In this document: positions 15,364-16,225 of the stretch, one piece after another
How the letters are laid out: every line of letters begins with the position of its first letter
Numbering within the stretch: the first letter of the stretch is position 1
Assembly (NCBI GenBank): GCA_020431405.1
Contig: JAGQIK010000117.1
Coordinates: forward strand, 1 to 30,590
DNA: 30,590 nt
Direction: 5' to 3'
Origin: Myxococcales bacterium
GTDB taxonomy: Bacteria > Myxococcota_A > Polyangia > GCA-2747355
Notes under the pieces: generated by a model
The model's database searches: none
The model's input: only the letters and a program-made list of their open reading frames with translations
What the model was told of the DNA's origin: nothing
Translations under genes and position numbers: made by a program

Positions 15364-15380
15364 GGGGCTCGGAGAGCCCC
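15364..15380. terminator. Short GC hairpin between convergent operons.
   Basis: GGGGCTC gga GAGCCCC is a 7-bp perfect stem with a 3-nt loop. It lies between the end of the + operon (15353) and the end of the - operon (15380). Confidence 0.4.
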
Positions 15381-16225
15381 TAGCGATCGTCGAGCGCGCG
15401 CATCAGGCGGTGCCGGTCGCGGCGGCTGGCGAACGGCGGCTCGCCGTCGCCCGCGCCGGCGGGTTGAAGCCCGCCATCGTCGGCCGCGTACCACTTGGGA
15501 AAGAACGACAGCTTCGTCGCGCGCTCGATCTCTTCGATGTCGTCGACCAAGTAGTCGTCGGGTGACTTGTTCTTCGGCGCGTCTTGCGGGATGCGGAAGG
15601 CGAAGACGTCGACGTTGCTCATGCGGTTCCACGGATAGCGGAACGGATCGGCCATCACGTAGAAGTACGCCTCGGGCAGCGGCACCTGGCTGCCGTTGGG
15701 GCGCTCGATGATCTCGGGGTCGTCGCCGAAGATCGGTCCAGCGATGGCCCAGACGTGGTCCTTGTCGGGGGTGTCCTCGATCTTGCGGATGGCGTCTTCG
15801 AGCTTGGCCCACACGCCGGTGTTGAGCGTGCCGCGCTGTGGGCTCATGTTCGACATCAGGAACGTCTCCATCTGCGCCAGGCGGCCGAACTGTTCATTGA
15901 TCGCCTGGTTGGGGACCATGTGACCGACGTGGTAGCCATCGCCGAAGGTCTCCGACCCGACGCGCAGTGCTTCATCGAGGCGCGCATCGTCGTAGTAGAG
16001 GTGCGGACGATCGTAGTCCACGGCGGCCTTGGCGTGCGCTACGCGGTAGGCCGCCCACGTCGGCTGCATGCGCTTGGGGCAGAACCCGACGGCGAAGCCA
16101 TGGTTGACGAGCACCACGACCGGGTTGTCCTTGTCGCCGTTGAGTGGTCGGCCTTGAAAGCAGTAGAGGTCGAGCAAGTAGGCCAGATGTTGGCTGCTCG
16201 GATGGACTGTCGTGAAGTCGGTCAT
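15380..16225 (-). CDS. DNA/RNA non-specific endonuclease of the Serratia NucA / EndoG family (a beta-beta-alpha-metal-finger nuclease), with no signal peptide.
   Basis: The catalytic His motif GYHVGHMVPN corresponds to DRGH. The metal-ligand Asn motif FLMSNMSPQ matches the EndoG motif TFYLSNVAPQ. The N-terminus is not hydrophobic. Its start overlaps the upstream gene's stop (ATGA at 16222-16225). Confidence 0.8.
   Translation of the reverse strand: MTDFTTVHPSSQHLAYLLDLYCFQGRPLNGDKDNPVVVLVNHGFAVGFCPKRMQPTWAAYRVAHAKAAVDYDRPHLYYDDARLDEALRVGSETFGDGYHVGHMVPNQAINEQFGRLAQMETFLMSNMSPQRGTLNTGVWAKLEDAIRKIEDTPDKDHVWAIAGPIFGDDPEIIERPNGSQVPLPEAYFYVMADPFRYPWNRMSNVDVFAFRIPQDAPKNKSPDDYLVDDIEEIERATKLSFFPKWYAADDGGLQPAGAGDGEPPFASRRDRHRLMRALDDR

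Follow-up and report, generated by a model that had tools for sequence, protein, structure and literature searches.

A stretch of 30,590 nucleotides from a Myxococcales metagenome-assembled genome (contig JAGQIK010000117.1 of GenBank assembly GCA_020431405.1; the whole stretch is called the window below) carries a five-gene operon in which a cassette of three genes, prC, prB and prA, is followed by a gene for a bacterial gasdermin (bGSDM) and, as its last member, by a gene for a nuclease of the Endonuclease_NS family. The best-supported reading, to which a probability of about 0.5 is given, takes the nuclease for a latent second effector of a cell-death operon, which would be licensed by the same clan-CD protease that would also activate the gasdermin. 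That the nuclease is a functional member of the operon is the stronger part of this reading, and a direct cleavage of its linker, by which an inhibitory C-terminal helix would be released, is the weaker part. A preliminary description of this DNA had proposed a suicide nuclease that is held in check until the protease and gasdermin module fires. Independent support for that idea now comes from the linkage of related nucleases to proteases, the fusion of others to an M8-like peptidase, the arrangement of linker and helix at the C-terminus, and the likeness of the linker to the cleavage loop of the gasdermin.

An Endonuclease_NS Protein with a Modified Active Site

The assignment of the nuclease to the EndoG/NucA family, made in the preliminary description, was upheld by Pfam, by sequence matches in the PDB and by the predicted fold, and the open reading frame (ORF) was located exactly where it had been placed, with both of the motifs quoted for it. 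The Pfam profile PF01223 (Endonuclease_NS) matches residues 37-246 over profile positions 17-221 of 223 (E = 8.8e-25; 88.1 bits against a cut-off of 23), and the closest sequences in the PDB are those of EXOG, Serratia nuclease, NucA and EndoG, with EXOG at the top. An AlphaFold model made with 80 relatives as input reached a predicted local distance difference test (pLDDT) score of 91 and a predicted template modelling score of 0.90, and Foldseek matched it to the Serratia nuclease structure 1qae with E = 5.4e-15, a target template modelling score of 0.76 and a root-mean-square deviation of 2.9-3.0 Å in 230 alignment columns.

The two active-site motifs (Table 1) could be aligned with the SRGH and SNIVPQ motifs of EXOG, by which His102 is identified as the histidine of the classical DRGH motif and Asn126 as a predicted metal ligand. 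His102, Asn126, Asn135 and Glu143 are invariant in the alignment of the 80 relatives, and Val100, Gly101 and Pro105 are likewise invariant in the 80 sequences. The earlier claim that both motifs are intact stood in part, as the asparagine of SNMSPQ and the catalytic histidine are kept, but DRGH itself is reduced to Gly-His within HVGH (His99-Val100-Gly101-His102), where His99, conserved in at least 90% of the sequences, and the invariant Val100 replace Asp and Arg. Judged by the residues that are kept, the nuclease is probably catalytically active.

The modified motif also admits an alternative in which the nuclease fold is used for altered chemistry, either on a narrower substrate (RNA, RNA/DNA hybrids, modified phage DNA or nucleotide signals) or as a non-catalytic sensor or adaptor for the proteases. 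Such a role would fit the change of Arg to an invariant Val100 throughout the subfamily, and also the equally good Foldseek matches of the nuclease model to ENPP1 and autotaxin, whose nuclease-like domains are catalytically inert. Against this, the general-base His102, the metal-binding Asn126, Asn135 and Glu143 are all invariant, as would be expected of an active enzyme, and EXOG likewise departs from DRGH with its SRGH and is an active nuclease nonetheless. The four residues are not known to be kept in the inert nuclease-like domains of the ENPP type. Altered chemistry is regarded as the least probable of the alternatives weighed here.

A Cytoplasmic Protein without an Inhibitor Gene

Members of this family are typically extracellular, and the window nuclease was described from the outset as having no signal peptide and no obvious inhibitor gene. 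Both statements were borne out. No 12-residue window within residues 1-45 exceeds a hydropathy of 1.08 and no 19-residue window exceeds 0.92; there is not a single Lys or Arg among residues 1-10; and the N-terminus consists of a strand and a helix that belong to an extension of 36 residues, which is confidently modelled (pLDDT 96) and kept in the 80 relatives. An alternative upstream start that might add a signal peptide was sought as well, and there is none, with an in-frame stop 11 codons upstream and no start codon in between. The sequence thus supports a cytoplasmic location for the nuclease.

Neither a NuiA-type inhibitor nor any other Pfam family was found among the ORFs flanking the nuclease, and an all-against-all clustering of neighbouring ORFs in the first 80 loci fetched for its relatives revealed no conserved small neighbour or immunity gene. 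The only candidates that the clustering produced were shadow ORFs overlapping the nuclease or the M8-like extension of its relatives, and these were discarded.

The Gasdermin Operon

The five genes are tightly packed on the minus strand in the order prC-prB-prA-bGSDM-nuclease. Three of the four junctions are 4-nucleotide overlaps of start and stop codons, namely ATGA between prC and prB, TTGA between prB and prA, and ATGA between the gasdermin and the nuclease, and the fourth, from prA to the gasdermin, is a spacer of 32 nucleotides with a GAGGAG ribosome-binding site; a GGAGG motif lies upstream at the prC/prB junction. The GC content at third codon positions (GC3) is alike across the operon, the nuclease included. 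The overlap of the nuclease start with the gasdermin stop, to which attention had been drawn in the preliminary description, was thus confirmed, and it argues for co-translation of the two genes. The nuclease also proved to be the terminal gene, as had been said; it closes the operon and is followed by 26 nucleotides up to the stop of a convergent ORF.

The neighbour that had been called gasdermin-like is a true bacterial gasdermin by three profile and sequence matches: the PADLOC bGSDM model (3.5e-69), the NCBIfam equivalog prok_gasdermin (186.5 bits against a cut-off of 100) and, in a PDB sequence search, the Vitiosangium bGSDM 7n51 (2.1e-37). Its residues 4-240 align with residues 5-240 of the Vitiosangium protein, of which the pore-form chain 8sl0 has 237 residues and the full-length 7n51 has 266, and on this basis the cleavage loop is predicted at residues 233-244 (DAGELAVAGSGD). 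The C-terminus of the gasdermin is a strongly acidic tail, DEDGDDDDHDDASNGGAA. A search for homologues of this gasdermin returned 5 proteins only, all from very short contigs.

Much more distant relationships had to be followed for the cassette, in which prB and prA were assigned solely through their homologue sets and predicted fold. The window sequence of prB alone has no Pfam match, even at E<=1, and it is the exception among the 40 sequences of its alignment (the window protein and 39 homologues), of which the other 39 match the CHAT profile PF12770 at up to 5.6e-21. The prB family profile finds the CHAT protein 8tl0 in the PDB at 9.4e-8, its positional homologues in six other loci (L161 and L163-L167) carry a CHAT label in precomputed annotation, and His241/Gly242 and Cys294 are invariant in the family. 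For prA there is no Pfam match, even at E<=1, and single-sequence and profile searches of the PDB were empty; its AlphaFold model (pLDDT 90) has as its top Foldseek matches in the PDB human separase (6.9e-5, probability 1.0) and SAVED-CHAT 8tl0 (1.9e-4), at low template modelling scores of 0.29-0.38, and Ser258-His259-Gly260 and Ala305-Cys306-Cys307 are invariant in its alignment. The first gene, prC, also lacks a Pfam match, even at E<=1, and a PDB match by single sequence or profile. Its alignment has an invariant His254-Gly255 and no conserved Cys, and prC may therefore be a non-catalytic partner. No PADLOC or NCBIfam model matches any of the three. The phrase "protease and gasdermin module" used in the preliminary description is consequently justified for prB, prA and the gasdermin, but not for prC, so that a protease assignment holds for two of the three upstream genes.

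The complete prC-prB-prA cassette was found in the same six other fetched loci, which represent five distinct contexts (L163 and L164 contain the same protein). It often stands after a fourth gene of about 445 codons and usually has no recognisable effector beside it, and in one case (L166) it adjoins SIR2_2, integrase and IS21 genes. The cassette is widespread; searched alone, prA has 265 matches in Acidobacteriota, Actinomycetota, Chloroflexota and other groups.

Recurrent Coupling of the Nuclease Subfamily to Proteases

It was through its relatives that the nuclease could be placed in a wider setting. The subfamily has 225 database matches, and a scan of 185,579 species genomes found 460 loci with relatives of the nuclease, distributed over Proteobacteria, Planctomycetota, Bacteroidota, Acidobacteriota, Gemmatimonadota, Chloroflexota and other phyla and typically 50-65% identical to the window protein; a search of plasmids returned only distant relatives, at 35% identity or less. 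The loci examined were 160 that were fetched and four more, giving 164 others and 165 with the window. Two architectures occur among them, a short form of about 275 residues, to which the window nuclease belongs, and a long form of about 600 residues, found in 67 relatives, in which the nuclease is followed first by a coiled coil and then by a domain with HExxH, whose match to Peptidase_M8 exceeds the threshold. No description of such a cytoplasmic fusion of this nuclease with an M8-like (leishmanolysin) metallopeptidase was found in the literature. Examples of the long form are L041:10001-11743, L023, L026, L032, L033, L066 and about 60 more, and most of its members that were printed have NVGH in place of HVGH.

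The short forms are coupled to proteases in a different way, by adjacency. Among 22 distinct close short-form lineages with usable context, the window included, 13 have an adjacent protease, mostly co-directional and usually at a distance of 20-125 nucleotides from the nuclease, which corresponds to a binomial p of 2.5e-6 if a background of 15% is assumed. When four further close relatives are added, of which three have a protease neighbour, the count becomes 16 of about 26 distinct close lineages. The proteases belong to about ten unrelated families (Table 1), and the N-termini of the nine partner proteases that were printed show, by eye, no signal-peptide-like hydrophobic stretch. In a neighbour-joining tree, the window nuclease falls within the protease-linked clade, and every protease type forms a sub-clade of its own. 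The islands of the further close relatives also carry an EAD5-trypsin protein and mobile-element genes. EAD5-tagged peptidases stand beside or near close relatives in two of these loci, as an M43 peptidase (L168:6886-8316) and a trypsin-like one (L170:7752-8945), and they tie these nucleases to the conflict systems of the EAD type described by Kaur et al. More distant short forms adjoin patatin, PLD or EEP enzymes, and in three loci (L126:1738-5693, L140:7592-8941 and L006:3006-4049) the neighbours are other proteins typical of death effectors (a patatin-like phospholipase, an AAA_21 ATPase and an enzyme of the PLD family), with no adjacent protease. In the reading preferred here, this distinct subfamily serves as a plug-in effector of conflict systems built on proteases.

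A conserved gasdermin-nuclease module was sought among these loci and was ruled out, the pairing being unique to the window among the 165. This uniqueness speaks for another explanation, by which the adjacency is incidental or recent and the nuclease takes no part in cell death, serving instead in the cytoplasm as a housekeeping or stress-related enzyme, for instance in the turnover of nucleic acids. The occurrence of the CHAT cassette elsewhere without the nuclease, the metabolic genes that adjoin some relatives, and the fact that neither PADLOC nor NCBIfam has a model giving the nuclease a defence or functional assignment all point the same way. What this explanation does not account for is the 4-nucleotide ATGA overlap with the gasdermin stop and a codon-position GC that fits the operon, nor does it sit well with a protease linkage that is strongly enriched in exactly the clade of the window protein and with related loci that hold EAD5-tagged peptidases, patatin, PLD and lipase effectors and mobile-element genes. 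An incidental neighbourhood is rated as rather improbable.

A Variable Linker and a Conserved C-Terminal Helix

The part of the nuclease on which latency would depend lies beyond the Pfam domain. After W245 a variable segment begins, which varies across the family and is similar within each protease-type sub-clade, a pattern that is confounded with phylogeny. The model of the window protein has a helix at residues 243-251 and then a coil of low confidence at about residues 252-264, where residues 256-259 have a pLDDT below 50 and the block 251-260 has an average of 50. Beyond the linker the chain becomes ordered again in two short helices, 265-271 and 273-279, with block-mean pLDDT values of 79-95; Arg273 is invariant there, His272, Leu274 and Leu275 are conserved in at least 90%, and the long-form fusions retain an equivalent [S/H]RL motif. 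As modelled, this layout of a core, a flexible linker and a conserved C-terminal helix parallels the autoinhibition of bacterial gasdermins.

The linker also resembles the loop of the gasdermin encoded next to it. Residues 249-260 of the nuclease (DDGGLQPAGAGD) match the gasdermin loop, and the match continues collinearly with PPFASRRD in the nuclease and SPFAALRD in the gasdermin. Compared with shuffled sequences, the match has p = 0.058 without gaps and p = 0.03 with gaps at standard costs, and none of 400 shuffles reached its score at lenient costs. The tail of the window nuclease ranks first among the 80 family tails for likeness to the gasdermin loop, and of 1213 windows taken from the contig's remaining proteins, no more than 2 reached such a score. 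By sequence, then, the comparison is suggestive of a cleavage motif that is shared by the nuclease and the gasdermin.

The same C-terminal helices can be read in another way, as a wing that handles substrate as in EXOG. The nuclease would then be a member of the operon without being a zymogen, active or weakly restrained, and it would act after the gasdermin has fired, either by degrading nucleic acids in the dying cell upon the collapse of ion and Mg2+ homeostasis or by leaving through the very large gasdermin pores or by lysis and destroying, outside the cell, the host and phage DNA that is released. In favour of this are the missing signal peptide in a family that is typically extracellular, the position of EXOG, which has a C-terminal helical wing domain, as the best PDB sequence match, the basic character of the C-terminal motif RHRLL, and the existence of orphan relatives that have no protease neighbour. 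However, it leaves unexplained why about ten unrelated and apparently signal-less protease families, and a fusion with an M8-like domain, recur beside this nuclease, how a non-specific nuclease is tolerated in the cytoplasm without an inhibitor, and why its linker resembles the gasdermin loop. A nuclease that is active or weakly restrained in this manner is considered unlikely.

A Proposed Route to Two Effectors

If the nuclease is a latent effector, the events might run as follows. Some trigger would turn on the clan-CD protease cassette, and the protease would cut the gasdermin in the loop that precedes its inhibitory C-terminal peptide, so that pores are formed. The same protease would also cut the nuclease in its disordered linker, at about residues 250-262, and this cut would remove or free the conserved C-terminal helix and allow a non-specific degradation of nucleic acids. 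The catalytic activity of the nuclease, its toxicity, the latency of the full-length protein, its cleavage and the site of that cleavage are all putative.

A bolder form of this proposal can also be stated. One clan-CD cassette would license the gasdermin pore and the EndoG-type DNase through a shared loop motif, AG(S/A)GD; the subfamily as a whole would supply a zymogen that can be plugged in universally, with a linker re-tuned to whichever of the roughly ten protease families is its partner; and the leaderless nuclease might in addition pass out of the cell through the pores and there attack the DNA of phage or host. In this extended form the proposal is tentative and probably goes too far.

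Several points weigh against a latent, protease-licensed nuclease. With the Asp and Arg of DRGH gone, the substrate and the activity of the enzyme are uncertain. By tblastn, gasdermin and homologues of prA, prB and prC are present in none of the 164 other nuclease loci, and the six other loci with the cassette have neither a gasdermin nor the nuclease, which makes the combination in the window a single instance. Among the close relatives, several stand next to ordinary genes instead of a protease (OsmC, PfkB/xanthine dehydrogenase, FGE-sulfatase, AraC regulators or an ABC ATPase), and these would need another means of staying harmless. The likeness of the tail to the gasdermin loop was noticed post hoc in low-complexity sequence rich in Ala, Gly and Asp, and it is significant only when a long gap is admitted. 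Finally, the basic RHR motif suits a DNA-binding wing like that of EXOG at least as well as it suits a plug of a cationic active site.

Coordinates and Neighbouring Genes

Table 1. Features of the operon in the window, with the protease partners of related nucleases (L numbers denote other nuclease and cassette loci).
Feature	Position	Strand	Remarks
Nuclease	15380..16225	-	Terminal gene of the operon; 281 residues; signal-less Endonuclease_NS (EndoG/NucA/Serratia-type beta-beta-alpha-metal)
Subfamily-specific N-terminal extension	16118..16225	-	Residues 1-36; strand 5-7, helix 9-21; 5' of the Pfam match
Catalytic motif GYHVGHMVPN	15908..15937	-	Residues 97-106; His102 corresponds to the DRGH histidine (alignment to EXOG SRGH)
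Motif SNMSPQ	15836..15853	-	Residues 125-130; Asn126, predicted metal ligand (alignment to EXOG SNIVPQ)
Variable linker	15434..15490	-	Residues 246-264; candidate cleavage site DDGGLQPAGAGD, then PPFASRRD
Conserved C-terminal helices	15383..15433	-	Residues 265-281; motif RHRL(L/M); from alignments and AlphaFold
Hairpin GGGGCTC-GGA-GAGCCCC	15364..15380		GC-rich; in the 26-nucleotide gap after the nuclease stop; weak terminator candidate
Bacterial gasdermin (bGSDM)	16222..17079	-	285 residues; PADLOC, NCBIfam, PDB
Gasdermin loop	16348..16383	-	Residues 233-244, DAGELAVAGSGD; predicted to be protease-accessible; precedes the C-terminal inhibitory peptide
prA	17114..18490	-	Separase/CHAT-like clan-CD fold protein, just upstream of the gasdermin; AlphaFold and Foldseek
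prB	18487..19797	-	Divergent CHAT-domain (clan CD, caspase-like) protease; homologue set and family profile
prC	19794..21176	-	First cassette gene; GC3 frame analysis; positional homologues in L161, L163-L167
M4 thermolysin-like partners	L001, L002, L084, L017		HEAT-repeat protein upstream
S8 subtilase partners	L005, L085, L086; L083		L083 fused to Lipase_3 (class-3 lipase)
S41 partners	L009, L010, L012; L088, L089		Upstream in the first three, downstream in the last two (separate lineages)
Transglutaminase-like cysteine peptidase partners	L008, L093; L014		L014 alongside a C14 caspase
Other partners	L081; L087; window		TPR-S/trypsin; papain C1; CHAT, respectively
Partners in three of the four further close relatives	L168; L169; L170		EAD5-M43; Lipase_GDSL-C14-M15; S8, respectively

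The hairpin in the gap that follows the nuclease stop has a free energy of -29.4 kcal/mol and no U tract, and with z = -1.37 against shuffled sequences it is not beyond chance; scans for terminators and promoters gave nothing above chance, and the terminator scan did not call the hairpin. The convergent ORF on the other side of this gap (about 14230-15353, plus strand) has no match in Pfam, PADLOC or NCBIfam. At its longest (13743-15353) the reading frame runs into the 3' end of a gene resembling a GH35 beta-galactosidase (12154-14229), which makes its start ambiguous. Upstream of the operon and on the same strand lies a gene for a protein of 1324 residues made up entirely of TPR repeats (23139-27113, minus strand), conceivably a sensor for the cassette, and genes for a GFO/IDH oxidoreductase (22041-23087) and a TauE exporter (21258-22013) stand between it and prC.

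Relation to Known Systems

The general idea of a NucA-type nuclease that works with a peptidase was already known, having been predicted computationally as the NucA-peptidase "System 3" by Kaur, Burroughs, Iyer and Aravind (eLife 2020; PMC7159879). Its defining peptidases are trypsin-like and often have transmembrane segments, it was listed mostly from alphaproteobacteria, in 45 organisms, and it was put forward, as a prediction only, to be "activated via a proteolytic cascade" (PMC7159879). The likeness to the window subfamily is considerable, as in both an Endonuclease NS/NucA protein is encoded with peptidases or fused to them and deployment through a proteolytic cascade is proposed, some relatives of the window nuclease carry trypsin-like or S8 partners and EAD-tagged peptidases, and the NucA-peptidase system is enriched in multicellular bacteria, the window itself being of myxococcal origin. 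In contrast, the partners in the window are CHAT/separase-like, and trypsin-like ones were seen only in the relatives L081 and L170; going by the published description, the subfamily is also set apart by about ten protease families, by its spread over many phyla and by the gasdermin that is co-encoded in the window. Gasdermin is not mentioned in the 2021 follow-up to that study, and the combination of a CHAT cassette, a gasdermin and an Endonuclease_NS protein was not found described in the literature that was searched.

Protease-gated nucleases have meanwhile been demonstrated in another fold, with the metallo-beta-lactamase (MBL) pro-nucleases of Hachiman HamMAB, Avs and the caspase-nuclease "Canu" (Tuck et al., Science 2025, PMC12799240; Evans et al., bioRxiv 2025, PMC12642450). 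These were shown experimentally to be gated by insertions over the active site (PMC12799240; PMC12642450). They are recurrently paired with proteases of varying family (trypsin, caspase and S8), just as the window subfamily is, and different systems have acquired them time and again; they are latent, are cleaved site-specifically and then degrade DNA, which is the logic that is proposed, by analogy, for the window nuclease. The folds differ, however, the beta-beta-alpha-metal fold of Endonuclease_NS being unrelated to metallo-beta-lactamase, and Endonuclease_NS is absent from the ten protease-effector families surveyed in the 2025 pro-nuclease papers (PMC12799240; PMC12642450). The window thus appears to belong neither to the trypsin-defined NucA system nor to the MBL class, and yet to work alike. 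Quite apart from this one locus, the comparative data define a widespread subfamily of Endonuclease_NS proteins, cytoplasmic and without an inhibitor gene, that recur in coupling or fusion with unrelated proteases. If the nuclease is a zymogen, it would add a second nuclease fold to the recently established class of protease-gated effectors, would open the NucA-peptidase systems predicted in 2020 to experiment, and could serve as a compact protease-switchable nuclease, possibly of use as a tool.

In the gasdermin systems known from bacteria, the gasdermin is found beside caspase-like or CHAT proteases and carries a short inhibitory C-terminal peptide after a flexible cleavage loop (bioRxiv 10.1101/2021.06.07.447441). 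The window conforms to this with its bGSDM and the adjacent CHAT/separase-like proteins, but it departs from it in having a coupled nuclease and in that the upstream proteases form part of a three-gene cassette that occurs elsewhere without gasdermin. It also departs from most bacterial gasdermins in the N-terminus of the protein, which reads MGNKDPVLTM and has no Cys nearby; an N-terminal Cys is palmitoylated in most of them, a feature that is common yet not universal (Johnson et al. 2022, bioRxiv 10.1101/2021.06.07.447441). Neither Johnson et al. 2022 (bioRxiv 10.1101/2021.06.07.447441) nor a 2026 study of bacterial gasdermins uses the word "nuclease" anywhere. Such systems have been described as a protease together with a pore, and a coupled nuclease would make of the window a two-effector death operon in which rupture of the membrane is combined with destruction of the genome.

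With the well-studied members of its own family, Serratia nuclease, NucA of Anabaena with its inhibitor NuiA, and the mitochondrial EndoG and EXOG, the window nuclease shares the fold, the catalytic His and the metal-binding Asn. Unlike them, it has no signal or targeting peptide and no NuiA-like gene beside it, and it carries HVGH and the terminal extensions that are specific to its subfamily.

A last parallel is with the caspase-driven death of animal cells, in which gasdermin pores are combined with the DNases CAD/ICAD and EndoG. There, CAD becomes free when its inhibitor is cleaved and EndoG when it is let out of the mitochondria, and what is proposed for the window is a cleavage in the tail of the nuclease itself. 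The comparison is an analogy only and implies no homology of regulation, but a clan-CD protease module placed upstream of both a gasdermin and a putative DNase of the EndoG family would echo the animal combination of caspase, gasdermin and DNase, and if one protease module did license both effectors, the operon would be a bacterial counterpart of pyroptosis joined to apoptotic DNA destruction.

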